A DNA stretch of 64,000 nt. Source: a virus. The stretch lies in the IMG/VR virus record IMGVR_UViG_3300032242_001280, one strand, 5' to 3'. Each line of letters begins with the position of its first letter. Position 1 is the stretch's first letter. The position numbers were made by a program, and so were the translations under genes. The notes under the pieces are model-generated. The model worked only from the letters and a program-made list of their open reading frames with translations. It did no database searches and had not been told where the DNA came from. Shown here one piece after another: positions 1,580-49,239 of the stretch.

Positions 1580-1589
1580 AGGAAATAAT

Positions 1590-1988
1590 ATGTCAAGTTT
1601 ATCAGTAGCATTTTATCAACATGATGATGAAGAAATACCAGCACAAAGTATTGTTGTTTTTGGCGGTGAAAGAGATGTAACAATCAGCACAACTTCACAC
1701 GATCCTCGTGTCGCAGGTATTGCAATTGATCCTACAGCAGATGCTGAATTAACGCTTACTAATTTTGGGCTAAACGCTTGTTCAACTTTTGCTGTTATGG
1801 GAGTAGTTCCATGCAGCGTTCAAGGACCAATTTCAAAAGGCGATTGCGTAGTCACTAGTAGCATTGCTGGTGTTGGAGAAAAACTTGATCCAAAGAAATA
1901 TGTGCATGGATGCATTCTAGGCAAGTCAATTGAAAATATCCAAGATAACAGTATTCAAATTATTCAGGTTGCGGTTGGAATTAAATAA
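1590..1988 (+). CDS. Stand-alone Peptidase_G2-like tail fibre chaperone domain
   Basis: VVFGGERDVTIS...VAGI...MGVVPCSVQGPISKGD...ILGKSIENIQDNSIQIIQVAVG aligns by eye with the C-terminal domain of the upstream fibre; AAGGA RBS. Confidence 0.7.
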   Translation: MSSLSVAFYQHDDEEIPAQSIVVFGGERDVTISTTSHDPRVAGIAIDPTADAELTLTNFGLNACSTFAVMGVVPCSVQGPISKGDCVVTSSIAGVGEKLDPKKYVHGCILGKSIENIQDNSIQIIQVAVGIK

Positions 1989-2946: not shown

Positions 2947-2975
2947 TTGACATTTTTTAATCATTATATTATAAT
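2947..2975 (+). promoter_or_regulatory. Consensus sigma70 promoter of the glycosyltransferase/radical SAM operon
   Basis: TTGACA (2947-2952), 17 bp, TATAAT (2970-2975); ATG 6 nt downstream suggests a leaderless mRNA. Confidence 0.85.
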
Positions 2976-2981
2976 TTTAAT

Positions 2982-3329
2982 ATGAACACAGAACAATTGC
3001 GCGATGCAGCCAGAGTAGCGTATGATCGTGAACTGGCAAAACAAAATATCAATACTGCCATAGAATCACGAATGACCGTAAATTATAATGGCGGTATGTT
3101 TATTGTAACCCAAGAACTTATTGCTTTCTTAAATGCTTGGCTGCCAACTCCAAATCTTTCACTAAATTCTGATGGCAAAATTTATATGATGGATGCCTAT
3201 GATGTTCCAGTTAAAGTTCTTCCATACGAACTATTGCACATTTGTCAACGCCGTTGGTATGAAGTAATGAACGAGTTTGCAGCAGAATACTCAGATTTTA
3301 CAAAGATTCGTAATGCAAAACAACTATGA
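2982..3329 (+). CDS. Hypothetical protein
   Basis: 115-aa ORF directly after the promoter; overlaps the next gene. Confidence 0.7.
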   Translation: MNTEQLRDAARVAYDRELAKQNINTAIESRMTVNYNGGMFIVTQELIAFLNAWLPTPNLSLNSDGKIYMMDAYDVPVKVLPYELLHICQRRWYEVMNEFAAEYSDFTKIRNAKQL

Positions 3330-4074
3330 AGGTTGTCTTATTGTTGCGTTTGATACAAAAGAAATCAATTATACGCAACAGGCAATTGAAGCTGCCAATC
3401 GAGTTAAGAAATATATAGGCATCCCTGTTACCATTGTAACAGATGATGAGACATTAGATTATAATAAAATAATTGTTGAACGACCAGTCAACAATAAACG
3501 AGGGTTCATAAACAATCCTCCACGCGATTGGTATAATCTTGTAAGAACTCAGTTATATGATTTAACGCCGTATGATCGTACTCTTGTAATTGATAGTGAT
3601 TTTTATATTTCAACAAGCTCGTTATTACCACATATTAAATCTTCTCGTGATTTTTTAATAGCAAAAGAAATATATGACATAGCGCGAGGCAAAACAAAAA
3701 TTGAAAAGATACACAGCAGTCCTATACCTATGTATTGGGCAACTATAATGATTTTTAATAAATCTAGTGAAGCTGCGACTATATTTGAAATGGCAAAAAA
3801 TATTCAAAAACACTATGCATATTATGCTTCGCTATATGGGTTTCACACAAAACCTGTTAGAAATGATTATATTTTTAGTATTGCTTGTCATTTAACAGGT
3901 GGTTATGGATTACGAGATTATGGATTAAAAAATTATCCATTAATAAACTGTGATGCTAGATCAGAATATGTTAGTTGGAAAGATAATAAGTTAATCTATT
4001 ACTATGAAGGTAACCAATGGATAAACCGCTTATCTAATGTTGATTTACATTTGATGAATAAGGACCAAATATGA
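3313..4074 (+). CDS. GT-A fold glycosyltransferase (GT8-like)
   Basis: LTPYDRTLVIDSDF (DxD), WATIMIFNK, RND, LHLMNK; ATG at 3313 preferred over TTG at 3277. Confidence 0.7.
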   Translation: MQNNYEGCLIVAFDTKEINYTQQAIEAANRVKKYIGIPVTIVTDDETLDYNKIIVERPVNNKRGFINNPPRDWYNLVRTQLYDLTPYDRTLVIDSDFYISTSSLLPHIKSSRDFLIAKEIYDIARGKTKIEKIHSSPIPMYWATIMIFNKSSEAATIFEMAKNIQKHYAYYASLYGFHTKPVRNDYIFSIACHLTGGYGLRDYGLKNYPLINCDARSEYVSWKDNKLIYYYEGNQWINRLSNVDLHLMNKDQI

Positions 4075-4913
4075 GTCAGGGCTACCTTTGTATCGCACAG
4101 AATAGTAGTAGCGTTGATTATCTTCGCATGGCATATCTTCAAGCATTAAGTTGTAAGTTGACACAATCACATGTGCGCAATTTTAGTGTTATTGTAGACA
4201 AAGAAACCGCAGAACAAGTCACAGATAATCAACGAGAAGTATTTGATAAAGTTATTATTCTTAAAAAAGATTTAGCTGAAAATAGTAAAATAAAACAGCA
4301 AAACGAATCGCAGGTATTTGCTTGCAGTCCATATAAAGAAACCATAAAAACAGAAGCAGATATGTTATTTACATGTGATGTAAGTTGGTTATGGAACATA
4401 TATTCGCAATATATAATGAATTTTACGCAAACCGTTTATACATATAACCATGATATAATTACTAATCGCAGTCAACGAAAATTGTTTGATGATAGTTTTC
4501 TGCCAAACATCTATAGCGCATGGACATACTTTAGCTATGATTTGCAATCTAAGAAATTTTATGATACAATACGCATGATAATGGATGATTGGAATTGGTA
4601 TAGAGATGAATATCTAATAAACTGTAGATATGAAACTCCTAGAACAGACGAAGTATATGCAATAGCTGCTCGTGCTATGAATGCGCCACTTGATAATATA
4701 AATTTTGGATTTGTTCACATGAAATCACAGTTACAAAATATTCGAATACATGATTGGACTAAAGAAATATATACAGAAGTTCATGATGATTTTGGGGTAG
4801 TGTTAGGATTTCATCGGCAAACGCGACCGCTACACTATCATCTTAAAACATTTGTAACCGATGAATTAATAGATAGATATGAGTATGGCTTCAAAAAACA
4901 ACTTTTGGGATGA
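4071..4913 (+). CDS. GT-A fold glycosyltransferase (GT8-like), paralog of upstream gene
   Basis: SPYKETIKTEADMLF (ExD variant), PNIYSAWTYF, RTD, FVHMK. Confidence 0.65.
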   Translation: MSQGYLCIAQNSSSVDYLRMAYLQALSCKLTQSHVRNFSVIVDKETAEQVTDNQREVFDKVIILKKDLAENSKIKQQNESQVFACSPYKETIKTEADMLFTCDVSWLWNIYSQYIMNFTQTVYTYNHDIITNRSQRKLFDDSFLPNIYSAWTYFSYDLQSKKFYDTIRMIMDDWNWYRDEYLINCRYETPRTDEVYAIAARAMNAPLDNINFGFVHMKSQLQNIRIHDWTKEIYTEVHDDFGVVLGFHRQTRPLHYHLKTFVTDELIDRYEYGFKKQLLG

Positions 4914-5238
4914 AGTAGACGCAGGTTTAGCAAAGTTAGTTCCGCATATTTCTGAAATAAAATATCGTTTATATTATAATACAGAAACTATGCGCGGTGA
5001 AATAATATCTGCGGATGAATTGGAAGGTCCGTGGGTAGATTTTCCCGCTGAAAATATCGGTATACCACCTATGGATTGGCTTGTTAAAAAAGATGGCACT
5101 ATCACACGAGAAGTGTTTACTCTTCCAACTAGAAAAAAATTAATAAAAGGCGGCACTATGTTTTATACACTTAAAAATGATTATCAATTTGCAGTAGATG
5201 CAGATTATCCAGCAGCAATAGGATGGTATTATGACTAA
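4879..5238 (+). CDS. Hypothetical protein
   Basis: 119-aa ORF overlapping both neighbours within the operon. Confidence 0.65.
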   Translation: MSMASKNNFWDEVDAGLAKLVPHISEIKYRLYYNTETMRGEIISADELEGPWVDFPAENIGIPPMDWLVKKDGTITREVFTLPTRKKLIKGGTMFYTLKNDYQFAVDADYPAAIGWYYD

Positions 5239-6169
5239 TATCATTGACATTGCAGAATTAGATTGTATATTTTTAAGTTATAAAGAACCAAATGCAGACG
5301 CTAATTGGGCATTTGTGCGAAGCATTGCGCCATGGGTAAAGCGCGTCCATGGCATAGAAGGCAGTGATGCAGCACACAAGGCTGCTGGATTAGCCAGTGA
5401 AACTGATAGATTTATATTAATTGATGGAGATAATCAGCCTGATCCTGAATTTTTTAATCAACAACTGCGCCTTGCACCAGATAGTGAACACTGTGTATTT
5501 CGTTGGCGAGCAAAGAACGCTATCAACGGTCTTTGCTATGGCAATGGCGGTATCAGCAGTTGGACTAAAGACTTTGTTGCTAATATGCGAACACACGAAG
5601 CTACAGATGGCGGCGATGAAACCGTTGTAGAATTCTGCTATGATAAAGATTATTGGGCAATGCATGATGTATGGAGCACAACTGTTCCAAATTATAGCCC
5701 ACAACAAGCATGGCAAGCAGGATTTCGTGAAGGAGTTAAGTTATGTCTAGATCGCGGTCGTCGTCCATCTGCTGAAGAATTTGAAACTGCTGCATGGAGG
5801 GGTAATCGAGAAAATTTGGTTATTTGGTGCAGTGTTGGTACAGATGTTGAATTTGGAAAATGGGCAATCCTTGGAGCAAGACAAGGCGCATATATGACAA
5901 TGTTTGATGATAGTTGGGATTATCGTGAAGTTCGTGACTTCACAAAATTAGAAAAATTATGGGACGATACCGCAGATGATCAATTTAAAAATATTGACCA
6001 TTACGGAAATGTTTTGCGTAAAAGATTAGATTTAGACATCGTTACACTTTCGCCAGAGCACAGTGCTTGGTATAAAAAACATCAACGCCCATATTATAAC
6101 ATTGATATTATGCTTCCAGAGCGAGATTTTATTAGGACATTACATGAAACAGCTAGACAATTCAGGTGA
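5231..6169 (+). CDS. GT-A (GT2-like) glycosyltransferase
   Basis: FLSYKEPNA..RVHGIEGSDAAHKAA..SETDRFILIDGDN (DxD), NGLCYGNGG, AWQAGFREGVKL. Confidence 0.65.
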   Translation: MTNIIDIAELDCIFLSYKEPNADANWAFVRSIAPWVKRVHGIEGSDAAHKAAGLASETDRFILIDGDNQPDPEFFNQQLRLAPDSEHCVFRWRAKNAINGLCYGNGGISSWTKDFVANMRTHEATDGGDETVVEFCYDKDYWAMHDVWSTTVPNYSPQQAWQAGFREGVKLCLDRGRRPSAEEFETAAWRGNRENLVIWCSVGTDVEFGKWAILGARQGAYMTMFDDSWDYREVRDFTKLEKLWDDTADDQFKNIDHYGNVLRKRLDLDIVTLSPEHSAWYKKHQRPYYNIDIMLPERDFIRTLHETARQFR

Positions 6170-7574
6170 TAAGGCTACCGCTGATGAGAGCGGCGTTCTG
6201 CACAGCGACTTCATGTCTAGTGCCGAACAAATGCAAGCAAAGCTTGGACCTGCTCTTTGCTTGGCAAAGTGGCAGCAAACAAGTTTGCACCTAACAACTG
6301 GTCATACCAACAGTTGTTATCACCCACCACTGCACAGGATTGATGCCAATGAGTTACAAGATAACCCCAGTGCGCTCCATAACACCGCTCATAAAAAGAC
6401 CCAGAGAGCACGAATGCTTAGTGGAGAGAAGCCAGAAGAATGTTCATATTGCTGGCGAGTTGAAGCCACGGGAAACCTATCCGACCGACATTACAGATCG
6501 GGAGAACCTTGGGCTGCTGAGAAGTTTAGCGAGATTTTGGTTCAAGACCCTCTAACATGGAATACAAATCCTGCTTATGTAGAAGTAAATTTTAATAGTG
6601 CTTGTAATTTAAAATGTTCATATTGTAGTCCACAATTCAGCAGTAGTTGGATGAAAGAAATCAATGAATACGGTGCTTATCCTACTTCTAATAGTCATAA
6701 TAGTCCTGCTTACTTTCGTGGTGATCGTAAACCTATACCGAATAGGGAAGATAATCCTTATGTCGATGCGTTCTGGCGATGGTGGCCCGAACTCTACCCT
6801 AACCTAAAACATTTCCGCATGACAGGTGGCGAGCCTCTTATGGATCGCAATACCTATCGCGTATTTGATTATGTGTTAGACCATCCAAAGAAAGATTTAC
6901 ATCTTAATGTAACTAGTAACTTTAGCCAAGATGAATATGTGTTTGACAAATATCTAACTTATGTCAATCATATGTGTGGCAACGGTGTGTTAGAACATTT
7001 TATGCAGTTTGTATCTATTGATGGATTTGGGGAACGCGCCGAATATGCTCGTCATGGATTAGATTTTGCTTTAATGAAAAGTAATGTAGAAAAATTTTTG
7101 ACCGATGTGCCTTATCGCAATAGTGTAACATTTATTATTACAATGAACTCTCTTAATGTTACTAGCTTGCAAGATTTGCTAGAATGGATTCTTGAACTTC
7201 GTGCTAAACACAGCAAAACTTATCAGCGTGTTTGGTTTGATACTCCTATTTTGCGCGAACCAGCTTGGCAATGCATAGATCAGTTGCCACAAAGTTATAC
7301 TTGGAAATTAGAAAAAATTGTAGAATGGATGCGTCCACAGATTGAAACTCTTGATACTAGATTTAATGGCTTCAAAGATTATGAAATTTCTAAGTTACAA
7401 CGAGTCGTAGATTGGAAACGCGATAATCAAAAGAACGATACTGTTGTTCAAGCAGATTTCTATCGTTTCTTTAATGAACATGATGCTCGTCGTAAGACAA
7501 ATTTTCTTGAAACATTTCCAGAAATGAGCGATTGGTATAACAACTGTAAGTATTGGGCAGATAATGCGAAGTAA
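6144..7574 (+). CDS. Radical SAM protein with N-terminal twitch domain (RS1)
   Basis: CNLKCSYC, TGGEP; N-terminal CLAKW..SCYH..ECSYCW; ATG 6144 preceded by AGGA. Confidence 0.9.
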   Translation: MKQLDNSGDKATADESGVLHSDFMSSAEQMQAKLGPALCLAKWQQTSLHLTTGHTNSCYHPPLHRIDANELQDNPSALHNTAHKKTQRARMLSGEKPEECSYCWRVEATGNLSDRHYRSGEPWAAEKFSEILVQDPLTWNTNPAYVEVNFNSACNLKCSYCSPQFSSSWMKEINEYGAYPTSNSHNSPAYFRGDRKPIPNREDNPYVDAFWRWWPELYPNLKHFRMTGGEPLMDRNTYRVFDYVLDHPKKDLHLNVTSNFSQDEYVFDKYLTYVNHMCGNGVLEHFMQFVSIDGFGERAEYARHGLDFALMKSNVEKFLTDVPYRNSVTFIITMNSLNVTSLQDLLEWILELRAKHSKTYQRVWFDTPILREPAWQCIDQLPQSYTWKLEKIVEWMRPQIETLDTRFNGFKDYEISKLQRVVDWKRDNQKNDTVVQADFYRFFNEHDARRKTNFLETFPEMSDWYNNCKYWADNAK

Positions 7575-8919
7575 GAAACCAGACGAAACATTTCAAGAAT
7601 ATAAACAGCGTGTGTTAGATAGCAAAAGTGCATCTTTTTGTGGCGCTAAGTGGTATAATGCAACCATTTGGTTAGGCAGTGGACAGACCACAAGCTGTCA
7701 TCACCCGCTGCCACATAAAGTAAGTGTAGAACAGGTAATGAATAATCCTGCTGCGCTGCATAATACACCAGAAAAGAAAGCACAGCGTCTACAGATGCAA
7801 AAGGGTGAACGACCAAGTGGTTGTGAATATTGCTGGCGCATAGAAGATACTAGCACAACTACCATCAGTGATCGCCCTTATAAAAGTATGATATTCAGCG
7901 AGGAAGAGTTAAATGAAGCATTTAACCTCCCAAGTGAAAGTGATGTAAATTTAAGAACATTGGAGATAGCTTTTGACCGCACTTGCAATTTTGCCTGCTC
8001 TTATTGTAATCCTGCATTTAGCACGACCTGGGTCCGAGATATTAAGACGAATGGCAGTTATATCGGGCTTCACAGCGATGGGCGTAATCATTTTACGCAT
8101 CCTCATGATGGCAGTCAGCTTTATGGATATACCGATACTAATCCATATGTAGAAGCATTCTTTAAATGGTGGGAAAGTGATCTACACAAGACTCTTCGTG
8201 AGTTGCGTATTACAGGCGGTGAACCGCTTATGAGCGGACATACTTGGAAACTACTAGATTGGTTTAAAAACAATCGCGGCAAAAGCAATACTAAGATTGC
8301 CATCAATAGCAATCTTGGATTAGAACCAAAGAAACTTGACGAATTTATAGATGCTGTTCGTGGAATGGATATCGAAGTTTATACCAGTTGTGAAAGCATG
8401 ACTGCCCAAGCTGAATATATTCGTGATGGTTTAAATTATTATCAATGGTTTGACAATATGGTCAAACTACATAGCAGCGGTTCAGTAAAGCAACTGCATG
8501 TAATGGCAACTATTAATGGGCTATGCTTAACCAAACTTCCTGATTTTCTTGCGCATATGTTAGATTTTAAACAAGCATATGGTCGTGATAGTTTAACAGT
8601 TACTCTTAATATCTTGCGGTTTCCAAGTTTTCAGAGTCCATTAGTTATGCCTGTAGAAATTAAACAAGGGTGTGCAACAAGGTTGCAACAATTTTTAGAT
8701 AGTCTTGGCGATAACCATTGGTTGCATCAAATGGAGATAGAACATATTAAGCGTCTTATAGAATACTTAAATAGTACTGAAGCGCCGCATGCTGGTGCTA
8801 GTTCCATGGATGTATTGCAGAAAGATTTTAAACAATTCTATCAACAATACGACCAGAGGCGCAACAAAGATTTTATTAATACATTCCCAGAATTGAAAGA
8901 ATGGTACAATGACTTATGA
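7564..8919 (+). CDS. Radical SAM protein with N-terminal twitch domain (RS2)
   Basis: CNFACSYC, TGGEP; N-terminal CGAKW..SCHH..GCEYCW. Confidence 0.9.
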   Translation: MRSKKPDETFQEYKQRVLDSKSASFCGAKWYNATIWLGSGQTTSCHHPLPHKVSVEQVMNNPAALHNTPEKKAQRLQMQKGERPSGCEYCWRIEDTSTTTISDRPYKSMIFSEEELNEAFNLPSESDVNLRTLEIAFDRTCNFACSYCNPAFSTTWVRDIKTNGSYIGLHSDGRNHFTHPHDGSQLYGYTDTNPYVEAFFKWWESDLHKTLRELRITGGEPLMSGHTWKLLDWFKNNRGKSNTKIAINSNLGLEPKKLDEFIDAVRGMDIEVYTSCESMTAQAEYIRDGLNYYQWFDNMVKLHSSGSVKQLHVMATINGLCLTKLPDFLAHMLDFKQAYGRDSLTVTLNILRFPSFQSPLVMPVEIKQGCATRLQQFLDSLGDNHWLHQMEIEHIKRLIEYLNSTEAPHAGASSMDVLQKDFKQFYQQYDQRRNKDFINTFPELKEWYNDL

Positions 8920-10216
8920 TTACAATGACCGAACACCAGAATTTATTAGCTTAAATAAATTAACAGAAAAAGAAAAATTTTTACTTATGGAAAGTAAAAC
9001 TTTTTGTATGTTGCCTTGGACACATCTTCATGCATTTCCTACAGGACAAGCATATGTGTGTTGCAATTCTGAAATGAAATATCCAATTGGTAATTTGCGG
9101 GAATCTACAATAAAAGAAGTGTGGAACAGCGATTCCATGAAAAAAACTAGAACTAACATGGTCACTGAAACTAAATGTGGTTCGTGCGTGAGGTGTTACG
9201 AGCAAGAAGACGCTGGTTTTTTTAGTATGCGCAATAGTAGTAATAAAAGATTCGGGCATAATATTAAGCGTGTTGATAAAACACTAGAAGATGGGCATCT
9301 TGAAGATTTAACTTTATCATATTGGGATATTCGTTTTTCAAATTTATGTAATTTTCGATGCCGTAGCTGTGGTCATATTTTTAGTAGCAATTGGTATGAT
9401 GACCAAGTTAAACTGATAGGAGATGAAAAAAATGTTGATTATTTTAAAAAAAATAGTAAAAGAATAGAATACGCTGGAAGAACTCAATTAGATATATGGG
9501 AACAATTAGAACCACATTTAGATTATGTTGAACACATTTATTTTGCTGGCGGTGAACCACTTATAATGGAAGAACATTATAAAATTCTCAATGCATTATT
9601 AAAAAAAGGAATGAATAAGGTTAGGCTTATTTACAATACCAATTTCAGTGAACTTCGCTACAAAAAACAAAATGTTTTAGAGTTGTGGAATGAGTTTTCT
9701 AATGTTTGTGTAGGGGCCAGCCTTGATGCAATGGGTCCGTTGGCAGAATTAATGCGTAAAGGCACTGATTGGGAACAAACTGAGCGCAATCGTGAAGAAA
9801 TGTTGCGAATATGTCCGCAGGTTGATTTTTATATTAGTCCTACCCTGAGTGTAATGAATGTTTGGCAACTACCAAGTTTTCATCGTGATTGGGTACAGAA
9901 AGGTTTCATAAAACCACAAGATTTAAATGTTAATATTTTGCAAGACGCACCTTTCTTTAGGATTGATATATTGCCAGATCAATGCAAAGTAGATATTCAA
10001 GAAATGTATTTAGAACATATTGAATGGCTTAAACCGCTTGATAATTTAAAAAGAGCCGTGACTGGCTTTGAAAGTGCAGTTAACTTTATGATGGCAGATG
10101 ACAAATCACATCTTATACCACAATTTTGGGCTAGAACGAATAAATTAGATAGTATTCGTGGAGAAAAATTGTTAGACCTTGTTCCAGAGTTAAGGAATCT
10201 TGATGGAAAAAAATAA
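8909..10216 (+). CDS. Radical SAM protein with N-terminal twitch domain (RS3)
   Basis: CNFRCRSC, AGGEP; N-terminal CMLPW..VCC..IGNL..CVRC. Confidence 0.9.
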   Translation: MTYDYNDRTPEFISLNKLTEKEKFLLMESKTFCMLPWTHLHAFPTGQAYVCCNSEMKYPIGNLRESTIKEVWNSDSMKKTRTNMVTETKCGSCVRCYEQEDAGFFSMRNSSNKRFGHNIKRVDKTLEDGHLEDLTLSYWDIRFSNLCNFRCRSCGHIFSSNWYDDQVKLIGDEKNVDYFKKNSKRIEYAGRTQLDIWEQLEPHLDYVEHIYFAGGEPLIMEEHYKILNALLKKGMNKVRLIYNTNFSELRYKKQNVLELWNEFSNVCVGASLDAMGPLAELMRKGTDWEQTERNREEMLRICPQVDFYISPTLSVMNVWQLPSFHRDWVQKGFIKPQDLNVNILQDAPFFRIDILPDQCKVDIQEMYLEHIEWLKPLDNLKRAVTGFESAVNFMMADDKSHLIPQFWARTNKLDSIRGEKLLDLVPELRNLDGKK

Positions 10217-11372
10217 CTTTTGTATATTGCCATTTGTTTCTATTGAGGCAGACCCGATGGGTAAATGCAAGGTATGCTGTTTAAGCTATGAAACTATACC
10301 TGATATTGATTTAAAAAAAAATACACTAAGTGAAGCTTTCAATAGTTCTTATATGAACAATCTTCGTCAAAGTTTTTTAAATAATGAAAAACCTGCCAAT
10401 TGTAATCGCTGTTGGTCAGAGGAAGCAAGTGGCAGAACTAGTAAAAGAATGCATAGTCATGCTAGGTTGCGTGAGATACTAGGTGATACAAAATTTACAC
10501 ATAGTGCCGATGGTAGTCTTATGTTTATAGATTTGAAACTTGGAAATATATGTAATCTTAAGTGTCGTATATGTGGTAGCTATAGCAGTTCAAAATGGGC
10601 ACAAGAAGAAATTGATATCTATACTGGCAATCAAACTGCTAAAGACAATCTTGAAAAAGGTCGTTGGCCTCGCGAATCAAAAAGATTTTGGGAAGATTTA
10701 ACACACTTACTTGCAACTTCAAAATACTTTGAATTTACTGGCGGCGAACCCTTTTTAATTGACGAGCATTTTACTCTTTTAGAAATTGCAGTTGAAATGG
10801 GTTTTGCTAAAGATATTGAAATTCATTATAATACAAATCTTACTACATTTCCAAAGCGTGGATTAGAAATTTGGCCACATTTTAAACTGGTTGAAATAGC
10901 AGTAAGTGTGGATGATATCGGTCCACGATTTGAATATCAACGATATGGAGCATCATGGGACAAAGCAATGGATAATCTTCAACGCCTCCGTGATCTTCGC
11001 AGCGCAAGCACAAATATTAAATTACAGTTATGCTCGACTATTAATGTTCAAAATTTTTATTACATTGATGAAATGTGTGAATGGATTTTTCAACAAAAAT
11101 TTAATTATGTTTATTTTAATGTTCTGCACGATGCTTGGCATTTTAGTATTAGCAGATTAAATGATACTGCAAAAGAACTTATTAATAGTAAATTTAAAGC
11201 ATATGTTGGTCCATATTCGAGTGAAGTTACTAATCTATTGCTTTTTATGAATCAAGGCGAAGGCAGTGATTGTAAAAAACTTGTTCAAACATTAAAAAAC
11301 AGTGACATTCAACGCAAACAAAAATTTAGTGATCATCATAGTGAGATAGCGGCGGCAATAGGATATGAATGA
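10203..11372 (+). CDS. Radical SAM protein with N-terminal twitch domain (RS4)
   Basis: CNLKCRIC, TGGEP; N-terminal CILPF..VCC..CNRCW. Confidence 0.9.
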   Translation: MEKNNFCILPFVSIEADPMGKCKVCCLSYETIPDIDLKKNTLSEAFNSSYMNNLRQSFLNNEKPANCNRCWSEEASGRTSKRMHSHARLREILGDTKFTHSADGSLMFIDLKLGNICNLKCRICGSYSSSKWAQEEIDIYTGNQTAKDNLEKGRWPRESKRFWEDLTHLLATSKYFEFTGGEPFLIDEHFTLLEIAVEMGFAKDIEIHYNTNLTTFPKRGLEIWPHFKLVEIAVSVDDIGPRFEYQRYGASWDKAMDNLQRLRDLRSASTNIKLQLCSTINVQNFYYIDEMCEWIFQQKFNYVYFNVLHDAWHFSISRLNDTAKELINSKFKAYVGPYSSEVTNLLLFMNQGEGSDCKKLVQTLKNSDIQRKQKFSDHHSEIAAAIGYE

Positions 11373-12666
11373 TTTTTGTTTGGCTCCATTTACGCATACC
11401 TATATCTCGCCACAAGGTGAACGGCGGCTGTGTTGTGCGTCACGAGAACCTGCACAAAATTTTAAACAGTATATTGATACTGCTGGCGGTGATGGACAAT
11501 TTACGCCGCTCACGCTAAAGGATTGGTGGAATGGCGAACATATTAGGCAAATTAGAAAGCAATGGTTGGCTGGTGAGGTTCCATCAGCATGTGAGGTCTG
11601 CGATAAAAAGCTACTTAACACTTCTGTATATCGTGATTACTTTGGACATCTTTTTGGTCATCTACGAGATGCTGCGGTGGCTAATACAGATGCTAATGGC
11701 TATACAACCTTAGAACCAATCTCATGGGACTATCGTTATAGTAATGTATGCAACTTTAAGTGCCGTATGTGTGGCGATATGCTAAGTTCGGCATGGGAAG
11801 TTGAAGTTCGTAAAAACAATATGGTTGATCTAACCAATCCAAAAAATCATTGGATGCAGCCAAAGAACCGCCATGCTATTCGTGATTTTACTCGTGATGT
11901 GGTCATACCAGAATTTCGTGCGGCTATTGAAAATAAAAGTGTTCGTGAAATCTATTGGGTAGGCGGCGAGCCGCTGCTATATGATGAGCACTGGACATTT
12001 ATGCGTCGAATAATAGAACTTGACTATGCAGACCAAGTTCGTGTAAGATATAATACAAATCTTAGTTATTGTAAAGATAATAAAGGTACGCTATGGGAAT
12101 TGTTAGACAATTTTCCACATTGGGAAATATGTGCAAGTTTAGATGGAACAGGAGCGATAGGTGAGTATATTAGAACTGGTCTTAATTATAATGATTGGCT
12201 CGTTGATTTTCGACAGGGGATACAGCATCAGCGAAACTCTCGCCAAATGCGCATTGACTTTACTCTTACTTTACTTGGTTTATTTGACCTTACCAATGTT
12301 ATTAGTCTTGTTAATGATCTTAATGTTTCATTATTGAGCAAAGTAGTATTTGCTTTTTCTCCTGATATTCTCTTAAGTCCACTAGCACTGCCTAGAACGG
12401 TTCTAGCGCCGCTATTAAACGATATACAAGACCGCATCAAGCCACTTATTACTCATCGTACCCAAAGTTTATGGGACACCCTAGAACATCTCAAAACTCG
12501 TCCTACTTTTGAAGAACAGTTTCCTGATACCTACAAGCGAGAAGCAATTCAAGGAAAAAAACATATTTTAAAATTGGAATTGTTGAGAAAAGATGCTAAA
12601 ATAACAATAGAAGATATTTTAAATGCTAGCCCAGAAGTGTTAGCATGGTGGCGGGGTATATCATGA
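11365..12666 (+). CDS. Radical SAM protein with N-terminal twitch domain (RS5)
   Basis: CNFKCRMC, VGGEP; N-terminal CLAPF..LCC..CEVC. Confidence 0.9.
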   Translation: MNDFCLAPFTHTYISPQGERRLCCASREPAQNFKQYIDTAGGDGQFTPLTLKDWWNGEHIRQIRKQWLAGEVPSACEVCDKKLLNTSVYRDYFGHLFGHLRDAAVANTDANGYTTLEPISWDYRYSNVCNFKCRMCGDMLSSAWEVEVRKNNMVDLTNPKNHWMQPKNRHAIRDFTRDVVIPEFRAAIENKSVREIYWVGGEPLLYDEHWTFMRRIIELDYADQVRVRYNTNLSYCKDNKGTLWELLDNFPHWEICASLDGTGAIGEYIRTGLNYNDWLVDFRQGIQHQRNSRQMRIDFTLTLLGLFDLTNVISLVNDLNVSLLSKVVFAFSPDILLSPLALPRTVLAPLLNDIQDRIKPLITHRTQSLWDTLEHLKTRPTFEEQFPDTYKREAIQGKKHILKLELLRKDAKITIEDILNASPEVLAWWRGIS

Positions 12667-13784
12667 GCGAAGTAATTGTAACATTACGAAATCCATTAAA
12701 CAAGGATGAAAAATTATCTTATTACATTAAACCTAATCCTAGTCAATTAGCTAGAGATTGGGTTGATGCTCTTAAGAAAGAATTAACAAAAAATAGTGAA
12801 CTTGAAAAAAATTATTGTTGGCATGGATGGTCAAAGACTAAACGAAATCTTGATTATCTTGCTGCTCAGTTATCTAAACATGCTACAAGGATTTGGGCAT
12901 TTAATGAATTAGGTGTTTGGCAATCGCAAGGATTATCAACATTTGATATTCGTACTAATTATACGGCAGCAGATATTATGTTGCCTATTACTGGTATAGA
13001 TGAAGATGGAAAACGAGGTGGCGGTCCAAACCATGATGTAATGAATGCTGTTCATAATTACTTTGAACATCTACAGGGAACCGTTGAAAACCTTAGTCCA
13101 TATTATAAACTTGCTACGCCAGAAGTCAAATATAGTATTAGACAAATTAATAATCTTTGTCATGAAATAGAAACACTGTGCTTGAGTTTACGAAAGGAAG
13201 TATATGCACCAGATTGGGTTCGCCCATCACAAATAACAACTTTTTTAAATGCCATGAGATATAGTTTAACACCAGAACATCGTCAAGGTTTTATTGAAAA
13301 TGGATATGATCGCCGTTTTGCACATGTGTACATGCATTGGACTCAGATAGGCAAGACGCTCAAGGAAGTATTTCATGATGAGGGTGCACCAGATTTAGAT
13401 CAGGCAACTTGCGATGCTATTACTCACCTTCAATATTATAGCGGTGAATTTGATGTTGAATGGGGGCGAGATGTTATATATAATAAACATCCTTGGCATA
13501 GAAAAGAAATGGATGAATATATAGCATGGTTAACTCGTCAAGGATACGATGTCAATGATCCTATGTTAAGTTTAGGTCATCTTGAACTAGGTCATGTAGA
13601 TTTAGAGCGCAGTTTTGGCACACATGATCCATATAAGATATGGGATATGATGAGTCCAATGCTTGATATCTATAGCATAGAAGTTGACGGGATTAAAGCA
13701 GTTTATGATTATAGCTGGGCAGATGAAGACTATGAGCAACGACAAATTAACTATCTAATGCCAGGTTATAAACGATATGTTTGA
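12663..13784 (+). CDS. Hypothetical protein (His-rich motifs)
   Basis: ATGA overlap with RS5 stop; NAVHNYFE, INNLCHEIE, YMHWTQIGK. Confidence 0.7.
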   Translation: MSEVIVTLRNPLNKDEKLSYYIKPNPSQLARDWVDALKKELTKNSELEKNYCWHGWSKTKRNLDYLAAQLSKHATRIWAFNELGVWQSQGLSTFDIRTNYTAADIMLPITGIDEDGKRGGGPNHDVMNAVHNYFEHLQGTVENLSPYYKLATPEVKYSIRQINNLCHEIETLCLSLRKEVYAPDWVRPSQITTFLNAMRYSLTPEHRQGFIENGYDRRFAHVYMHWTQIGKTLKEVFHDEGAPDLDQATCDAITHLQYYSGEFDVEWGRDVIYNKHPWHRKEMDEYIAWLTRQGYDVNDPMLSLGHLELGHVDLERSFGTHDPYKIWDMMSPMLDIYSIEVDGIKAVYDYSWADEDYEQRQINYLMPGYKRYV

Positions 13785-15531
13785 TAAACATTGGTACGAT
13801 TATGATGATTGTACCGATATTAAACAGCTAATTGAAGAAGCCAAGAAAAACAGCAGAACTGAATATGTATGGCTTTGTCATCATGCAGTAGATTATTCTA
13901 CTTTTAATTGGCGCTATCTTCCAAATCGACATCAACAGCATTTTATGCATGCATGGGCAAGTCATGATAATTCAGACTGTCTGACTACATGGCTTGTGCC
14001 GATCAATCAAGAGTTTGACAATACTGAAAAAGTATTCCATAGCGGTTTATTGCCTATCTTATATCAACCCAATGGCAAACTATGGCAGTGGAAAAAAGAC
14101 CCACTAATAGACTATTCTACTTTTAATTTTAACTGGTTTCCAAGCGTATGGGATTGGGGATATAACCATGAATTTACCATGCTTGGCAAAGAACGATTGA
14201 GCTATACTACGCTTAGCAGAAGTAGCACAAATATAAAATATCATGCCGCTAACCTAACTTATGATGGACTGTACTATGATATTTGTTGTATCGATACTAA
14301 CACCCATCCGTTACCAAACCATGATTATAAAGTTCGATTAATCACAACGATGGAAGAAGCGTTGAAGTTAGCTTTAAAACGAGCAACTAAACCTTGGCTA
14401 TGGGTAGTCAGTGATGTATGCGACTATGATGAATTTAATTTTACTTGGTTGCCAGAAGAAGGCGAAGAACATCAAGTACATTGCTGGCCAAGCGGCACAT
14501 GTGAAAAAGGCGACACATTTTTAATTCATGTTCCAACTTATCTTGGCGAATGGAATCCTTCTTACAACTTTAGCCATGATCCTGTAAAAAGAAAAAGATG
14601 GCCCGTGTATAATGTCAGTGAAAATTGTCTAGCATGGGATTTAAATAACTCGCCTAGAAACAAATCAATATACACATTATATTCTTTTACTGGAGTAATA
14701 GATTATCCAGATGTTTGTTTATGGGAAAAACGACCAGTAGTTAGTTTAAATCGCAGCAATAGTAGCTGCCTTGTTCCTCGTGATTGTATTGTTGAAAAAG
14801 AAATATATGAATACCCGCATCTGCTGCGCTATCCAGAATATGGTTTTGATATTCCTGTGGATGTAATTTTTATTCACAACGATGAAAGTTGTGCAGAAGA
14901 AAACTGGATAAAATTAAAAACGCTATGCCCAAGTGCAAAAATATTAAGTGGCGTTAACGGCAGATTGAAAGCATATAAAACTGCTGCCATAAGAAGCGAT
15001 ACTATTTGGTTTATTGCGGTTTTTGCTAAATGCAATATGAAAGAAAATTTTAAAGATTTAAATTGGCAACCAGATTTTTGGCAAGAACCTAAACATTATA
15101 TTTTTCATAATCATAATCTTAATACAGGTTTGATATATGGACATATGGCACCTATTGCGTATCATGCTAAATTACTGCATAAGAATACAGGTGGTCTTGA
15201 CATGACGCTAGCTCAACGCCATACGACCGTGCCGATAACCATAAGCGAAACTAATTTAGAAGACGATCCTTGGTTAACTTGGCGTACAGCATTTCGCGAA
15301 GTTGTTAAAATACTTCATTTTAGTAAAAATAATCCAAGTATTGAGAATGAATATCGACTGTGGTCTTGGCGTAATATTGCTAAAGGCAAAGATTCTATGT
15401 GGCAAAAGTATGCAGTTAAACACGCCGAAGAATATTATGCTGCATGCGGCGACAACGAAGAAGCATTAATGTTGACAAGCGAATGGGATTGGCTGTATGA
15501 GCACTACTTGCGTCTTACAGTGAATCCATAA
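13777..15531 (+). CDS. Multi-domain GT-A-like protein with degenerate internal repeats
   Basis: Repeated [WV]..DY..FN[WF].W.P motif; C-terminal domain parallels 5231-6169 (GVNGRLKAYK, NLNTGLIYGH, TWRTAFREVVK). Confidence 0.6.
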   Translation: MFDKHWYDYDDCTDIKQLIEEAKKNSRTEYVWLCHHAVDYSTFNWRYLPNRHQQHFMHAWASHDNSDCLTTWLVPINQEFDNTEKVFHSGLLPILYQPNGKLWQWKKDPLIDYSTFNFNWFPSVWDWGYNHEFTMLGKERLSYTTLSRSSTNIKYHAANLTYDGLYYDICCIDTNTHPLPNHDYKVRLITTMEEALKLALKRATKPWLWVVSDVCDYDEFNFTWLPEEGEEHQVHCWPSGTCEKGDTFLIHVPTYLGEWNPSYNFSHDPVKRKRWPVYNVSENCLAWDLNNSPRNKSIYTLYSFTGVIDYPDVCLWEKRPVVSLNRSNSSCLVPRDCIVEKEIYEYPHLLRYPEYGFDIPVDVIFIHNDESCAEENWIKLKTLCPSAKILSGVNGRLKAYKTAAIRSDTIWFIAVFAKCNMKENFKDLNWQPDFWQEPKHYIFHNHNLNTGLIYGHMAPIAYHAKLLHKNTGGLDMTLAQRHTTVPITISETNLEDDPWLTWRTAFREVVKILHFSKNNPSIENEYRLWSWRNIAKGKDSMWQKYAVKHAEEYYAACGDNEEALMLTSEWDWLYEHYLRLTVNP

Positions 15532-16621
15532 CAGTTTTAATAATAACATTAATATCAGCATCAGAAAGATGCCAGTGACTTGGCAAACTTATAACGCGCT
15601 GGTTATTAGTAATATTTTCAGCAGTTGAACATGGTTGATATCCATAAGACTTTACAAAATCTTCACGGTTAAGCGCCTTGGTATAGTGACTGCTATACTG
15701 AATGTTGGCTTCTTTTAACGCTGATTTGACATTTTCTTGTCGCTGCGGCGCAATAGAAAACGAATAATAATTCCATGTTCCCCATGGTTTGCGAATAGGT
15801 AAATCTACTTTGTCTGGATAATTTCTAAAATGATTATAATACAATTGGCATATTGCCATTTTTTTTGGAATCATTTCTGCGTAATAATAAATTTTAGAAA
15901 CTAAGGTAGCAGCTTGTGTGGATAGCATACGAAAGTTAAGCCCATGCAATTCTATATTTCCGTTTGATCCAGTAGTTGTTTTTCCAATGGTGCACACTGC
16001 TTGCATAATTGTTGAATGTATAGATTTGCTGATAAGCGCACCACCACCACTTCCACCAAAATTTTTAAGAGGATTAAAACTTAGGCAAATTGCATCAGCA
16101 ATAGTTTGGTCATATTGATCTGAGCATATTCCAAAGCTATGTGCAGCATCGATAATCCATTTAACATCATACTTGTTGCACCAGCGGCGGACCTTATCCA
16201 GTTCAACGCCTTGTCCATACAAGTCAACTGTGACAAGCGCACTTATCTGGTCGCCATATTTTTTATACGCATCATCTAGCAAATCAATATCTAATAGCCA
16301 ACTGCTATCAATATCAACAAATGTAGGTATACCGCCAACCGCTATTATAGCTTGTGCAGTAGCAGCATATGTCAGTGCTGGAAGCAGCACACGAGTGCCA
16401 GGTTTGATGTACAAGGCCATCAGAGCGGCTTGTATCGCACTGGTTCCGCTATTAGTAAGTACTACTTCTGCGCCATTATAATGCGTTTTAATATACTTTT
16501 CTAAAAGATCATGTGCCTCGCCGCTATAGAATTGACCGCTGCGGTAAACATTATCCATCCCGCCAAGTATGGCAAGTCTGCAATCTTCATATTGCTCCGT
16601 TAGGTTATAATAATTAATCAT
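15515..16621 (-). CDS. DegT/DnrJ/EryC1/StrS family PLP-dependent sugar aminotransferase
   Basis: NSGTSA, PALTYAAT, VDLYG, IDAAHSFG, SFNPLKNFG (PLP lysine), ISLP. Confidence 0.9.
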   Translation of the reverse strand: MINYYNLTEQYEDCRLAILGGMDNVYRSGQFYSGEAHDLLEKYIKTHYNGAEVVLTNSGTSAIQAALMALYIKPGTRVLLPALTYAATAQAIIAVGGIPTFVDIDSSWLLDIDLLDDAYKKYGDQISALVTVDLYGQGVELDKVRRWCNKYDVKWIIDAAHSFGICSDQYDQTIADAICLSFNPLKNFGGSGGGALISKSIHSTIMQAVCTIGKTTTGSNGNIELHGLNFRMLSTQAATLVSKIYYYAEMIPKKMAICQLYYNHFRNYPDKVDLPIRKPWGTWNYYSFSIAPQRQENVKSALKEANIQYSSHYTKALNREDFVKSYGYQPCSTAENITNNQRVISLPSHWHLSDADINVIIKTVMDSL

Positions 16622-17493
16622 TTAATAAGTTTTTGGATGCCGTTTTCCAAATTAATTTTTGGCGTATATCCAAGATACTGCACTGCTTTACGGATATCCA
16701 TTGCACCACGACGAGGCATGTCATCTGCTAAGTCACGACCGCATATGATTTCACTCTTGGTCCAAGTCCAATCTTTAATAACATTTGCTGCTTCTTGCAG
16801 GGATCGTCCTTCACCAAAGCTGACATTGGCAATGACTTTGTTGACAGGGGTAACAGCAGCGTTGCAAATAGCTTGTGATAGGTCTTCTACATGGGTAAAG
16901 TCAAGTTTTGCCATAGGGTCATCGACATGAATAGGTTCATGTTCTGCAGCAGCCTTTAACCATTTGGCGATAACACGATTGTTATCATCTCTTTTGCCGT
17001 ATACAGCAGTAGGACGAATGATTACCCAATCATTAGCAATGTCTTGTACCAATCTTTCACATGCCAACTTTGCCTTGCCATAGGCATTGACTGGTCGCAG
17101 TGGATCAGTTTCCTGAACCGTGCCAATCCAGTTGCCATATACCATGCTGCTGCTTATATAAACCATCTTTGCATCAGGATAAGCAGTCAACATATGTAAG
17201 GTGCTTTGTATAGCATTCTTCCACGCCGCTACACCATCTCTAGCGAACGATGCTTGATTAGGATGGCATGCTAAATGAACGATGACATCTACATCTTGAA
17301 TTACAGTGCTCGCACAGTCTGCATTAATCCAATCATCATATGCAAAGTCCATATAACGACCGCGAGCAAGATACAAATCTTGCTTGATAAATCGAATATC
17401 ATCAATTATAGTAACTGCATGTCCAGCATCTTTTAACCGTTTTACAACATGGTGACCGATAAAACCAAATCCACCTGTAACTAGTACATGCAT
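16618..17493 (-). CDS. NAD-dependent epimerase/dehydratase (extended SDR)
   Basis: VTGGFGFIG, SSSMVYG, YGKAK (YxxxK), RPTAVYG, DFTHVED. Confidence 0.9.
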   Translation of the reverse strand: MHVLVTGGFGFIGHHVVKRLKDAGHAVTIIDDIRFIKQDLYLARGRYMDFAYDDWINADCASTVIQDVDVIVHLACHPNQASFARDGVAAWKNAIQSTLHMLTAYPDAKMVYISSSMVYGNWIGTVQETDPLRPVNAYGKAKLACERLVQDIANDWVIIRPTAVYGKRDDNNRVIAKWLKAAAEHEPIHVDDPMAKLDFTHVEDLSQAICNAAVTPVNKVIANVSFGEGRSLQEAANVIKDWTWTKSEIICGRDLADDMPRRGAMDIRKAVQYLGYTPKINLENGIQKLIK

Positions 17494-17494
17494 A

Positions 17495-18379
17495 TTAAAC
17501 CGCCATTTCTGCTGTAATTGCTGGATGATGGCTATAATTCATTAAACGAATGTCTTCCATCTGTGCTGACCAAATATCTTTTACATCACTTAAATCAAGA
17601 AATGGAAGAGGATATGGTTTACGACTCAACTGTTCCATAACCTGCCCAACATGATTATTATAGATATGAACATCACCAAATGTCAAAATCAATTCACCTA
17701 CTTGTGCACCAATCGTCTTGGCAACTAAGTGTGTAAGTAGCGCATAACTTGCGATATTAAATGGCACACCTAAAAACAAATCAGCACTGCGTTGATACAT
17801 CTGGCAACTTAAAATATTTTTACGAATATAAAATTGCGCAAACATATGACAAGGCGGTAGCGCCATTTCTTTTAGTTCACCAGGATTCCATGCTGTGATA
17901 ATGTGACGGCGACCTGCTGGGTCTGCAATCAATCCATCGATTAAATCTTTTAATTGGTCTACTTCATCATAATTGCGAACTAGTGCGCCACTTTTAAATG
18001 GCGGAGTATTGTGATCTACATAGCGCCAATGACGCCATTGTACACCATATACACGACCCAAATCGCCAGGATAACGAGACTTTGGAAGCCAATAGCTTGC
18101 GTTAGCGTTTGCAGTCCAGATGGTTTTCTTTGCTTCATCTCTTGTGCCATGTAATATCTCTGCCAATCGTCGCTCATCGCCACTACCTTCAATAAACCAA
18201 AGTAATTCACTAACCACGCTCTTCCATGCAAGTTTCTTTGTTGTAACTGCTGGAAATCCTTCTTGTAGATTGTAGCGCAACTGCTCGCCAAATAAACTAA
18301 CAGTACCAACACCAGTTCTATCGATGCTTTGTGGTCCAGTTAGGATAATTTTTTTACATAGGTCATTATAATTTTGCAT
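17495..18379 (-). CDS. thyA: Thymidylate synthase
   Basis: DRTGVGT, ELLWF, LGRVYGVQWR, ALPPCH, YQRSADLFLGVPFNIASY, GDVHIYNNH. Confidence 0.97.
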   Translation of the reverse strand: MQNYNDLCKKIILTGPQSIDRTGVGTVSLFGEQLRYNLQEGFPAVTTKKLAWKSVVSELLWFIEGSGDERRLAEILHGTRDEAKKTIWTANANASYWLPKSRYPGDLGRVYGVQWRHWRYVDHNTPPFKSGALVRNYDEVDQLKDLIDGLIADPAGRRHIITAWNPGELKEMALPPCHMFAQFYIRKNILSCQMYQRSADLFLGVPFNIASYALLTHLVAKTIGAQVGELILTFGDVHIYNNHVGQVMEQLSRKPYPLPFLDLSDVKDIWSAQMEDIRLMNYSHHPAITAEMAV

Positions 18380-18863
18380 ACTTCCACACCTGAAATACTT
18401 TATCTTTGCCGTAGGTTTCCCAATCCATTTGGAAATTCTGTAGTAAGTCTACCACATCTACGCTTACATCACAATTATAATTATCATCAAATTTAGTCAT
18501 ATATATTTGTCGAAATAAATGTTTAGTGCTATCAATAAGTTTTGCACCGCCTATAATCCATATATCTTTATCAGGATAATTTGCTTTTAATACAGCTAAA
18601 CTTTGCTCAATATAGTTGCCATGAATGATAGTATGCGCATCACGAAAACTTTCAACTGGTTGATTGGTCACAACACAGCAATGGCGGTCTGGCAGAGGTT
18701 TTGGCATCTTAGGGTCTAGCCATGTGTTGCTGCCCATTACTACAATATGATTGCGGGTATTGGTAGAAAACCATTGCATATCTTGCTTGTCATAGGGCCA
18801 AGGAAGGCTTCCGCCTTGTCCTATACCGCCGTTTTTATCTACTGCAAAGATTGCCTTAATCAT
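18366..18863 (-). CDS. folA: Dihydrofolate reductase
   Basis: GGIGQGGSLPW, DMQWF, VVMGSNTW, PLPDR, WIIGG; adjacent to thyA. Confidence 0.93.
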   Translation of the reverse strand: MIKAIFAVDKNGGIGQGGSLPWPYDKQDMQWFSTNTRNHIVVMGSNTWLDPKMPKPLPDRHCCVVTNQPVESFRDAHTIIHGNYIEQSLAVLKANYPDKDIWIIGGAKLIDSTKHLFRQIYMTKFDDNYNCDVSVDVVDLLQNFQMDWETYGKDKVFQVWKYAKL

Positions 18864-49223: not shown

Positions 49224-49239
49224 GATATTATTTACCCGT

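Follow-up and report, generated by a model that had tools for sequence, protein, structure and literature searches.

A phage operon joining five N-terminal-twitch radical SAM enzymes to glycosyltransferase-like proteins: a putative glycan-assembly pathway

Only a small number of radical S-adenosylmethionine (SAM) enzymes, such as BtrN, DesII, and AprD4, are known to use sugars as substrates, and each of them has brought new chemistry to light. Viral glycosylation clusters are also known already. Here we describe a locus in which such a cluster is combined with five radical SAM enzymes of the N-terminal-twitch (N-twitch) type. It occupies positions 2947-18863 of IMG/VR record IMGVR_UViG_3300032242_001280, a 64,000-nucleotide (nt) stretch of DNA (hereafter, the window) that represents part of the genome of an uncultured jumbo-type freshwater phage and encodes a family-B DNA polymerase at 33049-35706. 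Our analysis makes it reasonably probable that the 12-gene operon in this locus encodes a soluble cytoplasmic pathway of glycan assembly with sugar-directed editing by the radical SAM enzymes.

Described systems resemble parts of this locus. The phage enzymes match NCBIfam family NF033640 in their full-length scores and in having an auxiliary-cluster domain before the CxxxCxxC core. However, NF033640 exists as a catalogue entry only, whereas here five old subfamilies form a fixed set in a phage operon with glycosyltransferase-like genes. The butirosin proteins BtrN (PDB 4M7T) and BtrR offer a second comparison, through one auxiliary [4Fe-4S]-type Cys set and through a DegT-family aminotransferase, whose gene here adjoins the operon. 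In contrast to the phage enzymes, BtrN is ~270 amino acids long and carries its twitch domain at the C-terminus, and its similarity to them is negligible beyond the Cys domain. The window, unlike the butirosin system, has no aminocyclitol genes.

Other likenesses concern the transfer of sugars. Mycobacteriophage virion glycosylation (Che8 and others; Freeman et al. 2023, cited in PMC12619734) relies on phage GT-A-type glycosyltransferases near structural genes, and the Che8 enzyme is a fold neighbor of operon protein g5. Those systems use known glycosyltransferase families encoded in late structural operons and are not known to include radical SAM enzymes, whereas virion glycosylation by the present phage is putative. 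Giant viruses (PBCV-1 A64R, PDB 2P6W; mimivirus amino-sugar pathways) likewise have their own GT-A transferases together with nucleoside diphosphate (NDP)-sugar dehydratases/epimerases and DegT-type aminotransferases. The PBCV-1 capsid glycosyltransferase A64R was the top Foldseek match of g5, a likeness at the level of fold only (TM 0.24-0.37). These are, however, viruses of eukaryotic hosts and are not known to use radical SAM tailoring.

Five N-terminal-twitch radical SAM enzymes in one operon

The operon comprises 12 plus-strand genes, with overlaps of 4-35 nt at all 11 junctions, and converges on a minus-strand block. The features are as follows.

2011..2943, plus strand: up3, Thr/Ser/Gly/Asn-rich fiber-like protein (T 16%, S 12%)
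2947-2975, plus strand: sigma-70-type promoter, TTGACA-N17-TATAAT, 12/12 match
2982..3329, plus strand: g1, first operon gene, 115 amino acids, no family match
3313..4074, plus strand: g2, retaining GT-A glycosyltransferase-like protein (GT8/GT6-like fold)
4071..4913, plus strand: g3, paralogue of g2
4879..5238, plus strand: g4, 119 amino acids, no family match
5231..6169, plus strand: g5, GT-A-type N-domain with DxD, helical C-domain
6144..7574, plus strand: RS1, N-twitch radical SAM, S-C-Y-H subtype (NF033640, 329 bits)
7564..8919, plus strand: RS2, N-twitch radical SAM, S-C-H-H subtype (NF033640, 303 bits)
8909..10216, plus strand: RS3, N-twitch radical SAM, C-C subtype (NF033640, 391 bits)
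10203..11372, plus strand: RS4, N-twitch radical SAM, C-C subtype (NF033640, 333 bits)
11365..12666, plus strand: RS5, N-twitch radical SAM, C-C subtype (NF033640, 277 bits)
12645..13784, plus strand: g11, conserved protein with N..H..FE and N..CHE.E motifs
13777..15531, plus strand: g12, two-part protein with a repeat N-half and a g5-type C-half without DxD
15515..16621, minus strand: DegT/DnrJ/EryC1-family pyridoxal phosphate-dependent sugar aminotransferase (Pfam E 4.9e-58)
16618..17493, minus strand: short-chain NDP-sugar epimerase/dehydratase-family enzyme, 291 amino acids (Pfam Epimerase E 6e-34)
17657..17686, minus strand: second sigma-70-type promoter, TTGACA-N18-TATAAT, 12/12 match

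RS1-RS5 all scored above the curated cut-off of NF033640 (N_Twi_rSAM; 170 bits), reaching 277-391 bits over the whole model length, while no members above this cut-off were present in 14 control genomes. Each enzyme contains CxxxCxxC and GGEP motifs. Among 18 aligned family members, C147/C151/C154 and G214-G215-E216-P217 (RS3 numbering) were invariant, as were the N-terminal residues C33, C52, C93, and C96. These four Cys residues are predicted to suffice for one fully ligated auxiliary cluster, and in all five proteins the Cys domain lies N-terminal to the radical SAM core. RS3-RS5 are set apart by the extra Cys of a C-C pair and by one further Cys; the corresponding motif of RS1 and RS2 is S-C-[YH]-H. 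A profile of the family aligned its N-domain with the C-terminal twitch domain of BtrN (residues 183-258; E 9e-4) and its core, weakly, with viperin, the unnamed radical SAM 8VPO, GDGT-MAS, BlsE, SkfB, and MoaA. As a profile-level match, the alignment to BtrN confirms a permuted twitch architecture and points to no reaction.

The first-pass annotation of this DNA had proposed five N-twitch enzymes of two subtypes from a functionally uncharacterized family. The NF033640 scores and the motif alignment bear out the first two points. The third fits our literature and PDB searches, which returned no paper on the NF033640 family and no characterized member, reaction, substrate, or structure. A PDB sequence search with RS3 likewise gave nothing usable.

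Pairwise identity among RS1-RS5 is 20-29%, compared with 42-51% between each of them and single members of an eight-gene tandem array in one Bacteriovoracaceae genome. The five enzymes are intact representatives of five old subfamilies that bacteria have as well, with no recent duplicates among them. In a 119-sequence tree, the RS2 clade (support 99) and the RS5 clade (support 100) each mixed phage and bacterial members, while the RS1, RS3, and RS4 groupings had weaker support. Homologues of RS3 number more than 7,700, and many, spread over very many contigs, are 58-62% identical.

Two answers to the question of what these enzymes act on were weighed. Pfam SPASM matches are located in the N-domains of RS3-RS5 (residues 33-96 in RS3), and weak NCBIfam and PDB matches include sactisynthases, SkfB, PqqE-like, and anSME-like enzymes. 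Such matches would suit protein or peptide maturases that crosslink, epimerize, or otherwise change residues of the fiber, g1, or g4, with the glycosyltransferase-like proteins glycosylating the same protein. The presence of the small conserved genes g1 and g4 in the operon would agree with this, as would that of SunS, a peptide S-glycosyltransferase, among the fold neighbors of g5. Matches just as weak point, however, to viperin, BtrN, MoaA, and BlsE, whose substrates are nucleotides or sugars. Pfam scans detected no RRE or PqqD-like domain in the phage or bacterial arrays (distant RREs could escape such scans), and the spaces between tandem enzymes showed no short precursor genes in either (unannotated peptides could escape). 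Moreover, the partner genes encode sugar enzymes. RS3 conservation is unusually high, and identities of 58-62% over many contigs are more readily explained by a constant small-molecule substrate than by variable peptides. Because of this conservation, the sugar-enzyme partners, and the lack of RRE domains and precursor genes, we favor sugars or nucleotide sugars over peptides as substrates, though a protein could still fill this role. Maturation of a protein or peptide as the purpose of the set strikes us as quite unlikely.

All five enzymes would be expressed from the promoter upstream of g1, whose -10 hexamer ends 6 nt 5' of the ATG. Its position and spacing were kept in 13 relatives with 50-95% identical g1 (6 perfect matches, 7 with 1-2 changes), all 13 of which have exactly 6 nt between the -10 hexamer and the ATG. 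As these relatives keep the -35/-10 pair in the same place, the match is evidently more than chance. In the window and its relatives (L006-L023 region), there is no space for a Shine-Dalgarno sequence between the -10 hexamer and the ATG. Given this spacing, the transcript may start at or adjacent to the A of the ATG, which would make g1 a candidate for leaderless translation. From the overlaps, the 12 genes are predicted to be translationally coupled under this host-type promoter. No membrane segments were found in any operon protein. The perfect promoter reported in the first pass is exact, as is the 17-base-pair 3' overlap with the DegT gene (g12 ends at 15531, DegT at 15515). The overlapping starts and stops also hold at every junction, but the gene count rises from 11 to 12.

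Glycosyltransferase-like proteins and the convergent block

No matches to g1-g5, g11, or g12 were found in Pfam, PHROGs, or NCBIfam. The structural model of g2 (predicted local distance difference test, pLDDT, of 94.8) yielded 327 Foldseek matches in the PDB at E<1e-3, all of them GT-A. It aligned with glycogenin at Z 14.9 and a root-mean-square deviation (rmsd) of 3.8, covering 191 of 249 residues (VIA), and further fold neighbors were LARGE1, alpha-1,3-galactosyltransferase (alpha3GalT), GlyE, LgtC, and UGGT. Across the GT8/GT6 enzymes (glycogenin, LgtC, GlyE, and alpha-1,3-galactosyltransferase), the g2 model aligned over its whole length at Z 13-14.9; sequence identity, in contrast, is 8-15%, and no Pfam or NCBIfam glycosyltransferase model detects g2 or g3. 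Within the D-S-D motif of g2, D90 and D92 were invariant in 24 sequences. Comparison of g3 with g2 by hhalign gave a probability of 99.8% (E 5e-28; 254 columns), with cross-hits between their hidden Markov models as well. At the DxD position g3 reads (E/D)-A-D, with E-A-D aligned to the g2 motif and the second D invariant. By predicted fold, g2 is a retaining GT-A glycosyltransferase of GT8/GT6-like type, and g3 is one by profile homology to g2. The label GT8/GT6-like refers to the modeled fold and not to membership in GT8 or GT6; neither protein was placed in a CAZy-type family because the Pfam, PHROG, and NCBIfam models miss both.

The N-domain of g5 (model pLDDT 89.7; residues 3-157) gave matches at Z 7-9.3 and rmsd 3.1-3.7 over ~140 aligned residues. 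These middling matches, from the PDB and viral proteins, were almost all glycosyltransferases or sugar nucleotidyltransferases, among them B4GALNT1, STIV A197, SunS, PBCV-1 A64R, and the mycobacteriophage Che8 glycosyltransferase. Its DxD (D65, D67) is near-invariant in the family, and g5 is likely GT-A-like by its modeled fold. At least 6,579 homologues make up the family, all of them lacking both a Pfam domain and an informative name, and a PDB sequence search with g5 returned nothing usable. Residues 361-584 of g12 are a g5 paralogue (E 1.4e-71). The DxD positions of this C-half read F-A-K in 10 of 10 orthologues, so that the domain has lost the DxD of the g5 type. The N-half of g12 contains three D-Y-x-x-F-N-F-x-W-x-P repeats and, in the ESM Atlas, matched only unnamed viral clusters. 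Thus the four GT-A-like genes of the first-pass annotation are retained, with g2 and g3 as GT8/GT6-like and g5 and the g12 C-half as GT-A-like; their support comes from folds, with no match in a sequence library.

The operon converges on genes for a DegT-family aminotransferase and an epimerase. DegT matched PF01041 over its full length (residues 22-364) with 197.5 bits against a cut-off of 19.8. Its nearest solved structures are WbpE, NtdA, QdtB, and scyllo-inositol transaminase, about equally distant; the last would suit a role like that of BtrR, but the other three are just as close. For the epimerase, the nearest structures are MoeE5, UDP-GlcA 4-epimerase, UXS, and GalE. Equivalog-level NCBIfam models for DegT and the epimerase all scored far below their cut-offs. 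The pair was retained in viral loci L058-L060 at only ~31% g5/g12 identity, and in two of these (L059, L060) g12 still converges on it. In a further locus, L057, the convergent block grows to a full NDP-sugar pathway by the addition of a cupin, a second epimerase/dehydratase, an NDP-hexose C-methyltransferase, and a UDP-glucose dehydrogenase. Because the pair is kept in relatives and expanded in L057, we assign these convergent neighbors, by gene content, to a predicted nucleotide-sugar pathway. The second promoter (17686-17657, minus strand) lies inside thyA, 164 base pairs upstream of the epimerase start, and could give the epimerase-DegT pair a separate transcript.

Pfam confirmed the identities first given to DegT, the epimerase, ThyA, and DHFR. 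ThyA has the catalytic PCH, RSAD, and the uracil-specifying Asn (PFNI), and it matched true thymidylate synthases in the PDB at E 1e-77. From these residues and matches, ThyA and DHFR are predicted to be ordinary genes for the synthesis of deoxythymidine monophosphate, a pairing that occurs in T4 too. Their proximity had been offered in the first pass as an argument for decoration of DNA. According to that explanation, the pathway would hypermodify phage DNA with an unusual glycan, much as T4 and others glycosylate hydroxymethyl-pyrimidines. An early-type promoter and the nearness of thyA, DHFR, and replication genes would be in keeping with it, and arrays of glycosyltransferases that build phage DNA glycans provide a precedent (bioRxiv 10.1101/2023.12.21.572611). 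The alpha/beta-glucosyltransferases of T4 and other phage DNA-glycosylation enzymes are early phage sugar transferases near nucleotide-metabolism genes, and the present ones, likewise near such genes, may be early too. However, the T4 enzymes have a GT-B fold and need hydroxymethylated bases, whereas this phage pairs a canonical thymidylate synthase with DHFR. Neither a hydroxymethylase, a 5-hydroxymethyldeoxyuridine kinase, a methyltransferase, nor a TET-type dioxygenase was found among the open reading frames (ORFs) scanned in the 64-kb window. Ordinary ThyA and DHFR therefore disfavor a DNA target, and the argument from proximity is not supported. In addition, radical SAM enzymes go unmentioned in the DNA-glycosylation papers retrieved here, and glycan-type clusters on bacterial chromosomes contain the same gene families together. 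Taken together, a glycan on DNA seems very unlikely.

Linkage in other phages and in Bdellovibrionota

Related versions of the region were available as viral contig G001 (94% identical) and 55 further IMG/VR loci. The latter were retrieved via g5, and counts of neighbors cover the fetched flank of each. At least one N-twitch radical SAM gene was present near g5 in 46 of the 55 viral loci, and RS1-RS5 occurred in unchanged order in 22 relatives. The gene order in nearly all loci was fiber (up1/up2), up3, g1, g2, g3, (g4), g5, followed by radical SAM genes and/or extra g5 copies. Contig G001 has an extra gene between thyA and DHFR that is missing from the window (L002:781-1515); its 244-amino acid product has a GDSL/SGNH-like N-terminus (F-G-C-S-F motif).

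The same module is found in a cultured phage. Ralstonia phage RsoM2USA has the order up3-g1-g2-g3-x-g5-RS1-g5-like (ORF355-348), adjoining an NDP-sugar dehydratase/epimerase (ORF358) and a virion structural block from which ORF356 and ORF359 were detected in virions. An RS2 orthologue (ORF202; 50% identity to RS2) is encoded elsewhere in its genome, flanked on one side by three DUF6071 paralogues and on the other by a NodU/CmcH-type carbamoyltransferase (Carbam_trans_N/C; L003, 114888-140222). The flanking carbamoyltransferase suggests that O-carbamoylation may be part of the same chemistry in some phages. Among ~50,700 GenBank phage records, tblastn detected homologues of both g2 and g5 only in RsoM2USA. 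Close radical SAM homologues were also restricted to RsoM2USA, with one distant homologue in Vibrio phages K566/K567, and an operon megablast against GenBank phages gave zero matches. Linkage of the radical SAM genes to glycosyltransferase genes, on which the first reading of this DNA depended, thus holds in 46 of 55 contigs and in RsoM2USA. Cyanomyovirus S-SCSM2R is reported to carry a DegT/AHBA-synthase-family aminotransferase (ORF305) beside a radical SAM 'maturase' (ORF306), which were read as antibiotic genes (PMC12801897). This pair may represent a sugar module of similar type.

Gene g1 is conserved in relatives and in RsoM2USA (ORF354), and tblastn recovered g4 from close relatives at 42-91% identity. 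The aligned g11 proteins have invariant His/Glu motifs (N..H..FE and N..CHE.E); of 2,584 homologues, all but one, which has an automatic label, are unnamed. That JGI label, 'RNR-beta/ferritin-like', was dropped because it had no support in Pfam or in a PDB profile search. Searches with g11 found no usable match in the ESM Atlas and nothing usable in the PDB. Most related loci, like RsoM2USA (ORF355), have an up3 homologue ahead of g1. Further upstream, the fiber protein up1 (window 2-1988) has three ~95-residue Gly/Thr/Asn-rich repeats, and its C-terminal ~125 residues recur as a separate 132-amino acid gene product, up2 (37% identity). A PDB sequence search with up1 gave nothing usable.

Both protein families also occur in bacteria. 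The N-twitch family was present in 45 of 201 sampled Bdellovibrionota genomes, many with at least 8 copies and up to 36 first-look candidates. All 8 genomes with the g5 family were among these 45 carriers (hypergeometric P 4e-6 across the 201 genomes, uncorrected for relatedness), and in most cases no more than ~10 kb lay between the g5-family and N-twitch genes. Further genes of the bacterial arrays encode other radical SAM types, a B12-binding radical SAM enzyme, GT2 and PMT_2 transferases, and a short-chain dehydrogenase/reductase (SDR). A weak g11 homologue adjoins radical SAM genes in a bacterial locus, and the Bacteriovoracaceae eight-gene tandem array adjoins obg, rsfS, and rplU. We also observed that N-twitch radical SAM genes are strongly expanded in predatory Bdellovibrionota as tandem arrays (G002-G200; L005, L071-L084), with ~11 radical SAM genes in one 20-kb stretch of L071. 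In L080 (G156:C1:749000-768999), a divergent N-twitch pair lies beside two PMT_2 (GT-C) glycosyltransferases, together with three large pilin-like proteins bearing an N-terminal methylation motif and a weak g11 homologue.

These bacterial clusters bear on the possibility that the phage product is directed at the host. Early soluble enzymes would then make a modified sugar nucleotide, a glycolipid precursor, or a free metabolite that remodels the host envelope (superinfection exclusion, receptor masking) or metabolism. On bacterial chromosomes, members of the radical SAM and g5 families are clustered with genes for GT2, PMT_2, and pilin-like proteins, which suggests a cell-surface theme. The consensus host-type promoter suggests early expression, and DegT and the epimerase share their minus-strand block with early nucleotide-metabolism genes. 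However, the operon encodes no membrane protein, lipid-carrier transferase, flippase, or ligase, and the module stays attached to the fiber/structural block in two distant phage lineages. On this evidence, we consider a host-directed product unlikely.

Near-identical sequence is contained in several freshwater metagenome runs. Core genes of the "moraphages" include four putative glycosyltransferase orthologous groups (PMC12619734), but a link to the present phage could not be made. Elsewhere, the window encodes an exonuclease, a Lon-like protease, and a MoxR/VWA pair, and no tRNA genes were found in its 64 kb. A homologue of TRAP-transporter solute-binding proteins (Pfam DctP, E 1.5e-42) lies amid replication genes at 36739-37689 (minus strand). 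Two giant ORFs (1,714 and 1,892 amino acids) occupy 44349-54918 (minus strand), the first of which had PHROG matches to a family of unknown function and to an amidoligase.

A proposed pathway and its acceptor

Under the reading that we prefer, soluble glycan assembly with radical tailoring, g5 would start the sugar chain, and g2 and g3 would extend it using NDP-sugars of the host or the phage. Each radical SAM enzyme would abstract hydrogen at its own sugar position, and the twitch cluster would take care of the electron. The outcome could be oxidation to a keto-sugar, epimerization, deoxygenation, or formation of a C-C or C-X bond. DegT would aminate a keto intermediate, and the epimerase would provide the right NDP-sugar epimer. 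Of the phage amino-sugar glycan pathway proposed in the first pass, the sugar pathway is therefore supported, through the glycosyltransferase-like folds, the linkage in 46 of 55 loci and in RsoM2USA, the retained DegT/epimerase pair, and the expanded block of L057; its thyA/DHFR argument for DNA is not.

The least certain part of this reading is the acceptor. Virion proteins, with the Thr/Ser-rich fiber proteins encoded directly upstream as first choice, are the acceptor that we put forward, at somewhat less than even chances overall. In two lineages the module borders the structural block, with a conserved place behind Thr/Ser-rich fiber genes; this favors virion proteins, and we infer that up3 is a candidate acceptor. 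Several fold neighbors of g2 are protein-glycosylating enzymes (glycogenin, GlyE, UGGT, and LARGE1), and SunS, PBCV-1 A64R, and the Che8 glycosyltransferase are their counterparts for g5; as judged from models, such neighbors of g2 and g5 point towards a virion-protein acceptor.

Several observations weigh against glycan assembly with radical tailoring, or against virion proteins as its target. To our knowledge, no activity is known for any N-twitch radical SAM enzyme, and peptide-modifying enzymes dominate the SPASM/twitch group. The fold of g5 is also that of nucleotidyltransferases, and at Z 7-9.3 the protein could activate sugars instead of transferring them. The C-half of g12 has no DxD. 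Four fully flanked viral loci (L038, L048-L050) have g5 copies without a radical SAM gene within 10 kb. The operon itself encodes no sugar-activating nucleotidyltransferase and no obvious acceptor-recognition protein. An early-type host promoter would suit DNA or host-surface targets at least as well as virion proteins, and adjacency to the fiber genes may simply reflect a boundary between structural and early modules. By comparison, mycobacteriophages encode the transferases that glycosylate their virions in late structural operons.

A broader proposal can be built on the same data, and we hold it only tentatively, with the balance tilted against it. The N-twitch radical SAM enzymes and the g5 family would constitute a widespread oxygen-independent toolkit for glycan editing, common to freshwater/marine jumbo phages and predatory Bdellovibrionota. 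Each subfamily would perform a distinct sugar C-H functionalization, and the phage product would coat tail fibers, shaping adsorption or resistance to defense. If true, this would amount to an undescribed type of virion modification and undescribed radical reactions on carbohydrates.

Conserved synteny thus connects a family of thousands of proteins, for which no reaction is known, with sugar transferases and NDP-sugar enzymes. Since the linkage holds in many uncultured jumbo phages, in the cultured phage RsoM2USA, and in Bdellovibrionota, it provides a testable class of substrates together with an experimental system. If the product does decorate virions, phage glycobiology would extend from simple glycosyltransfer to multi-step radical tailoring, with a bearing on host range, immune and defense recognition, and enzyme discovery.

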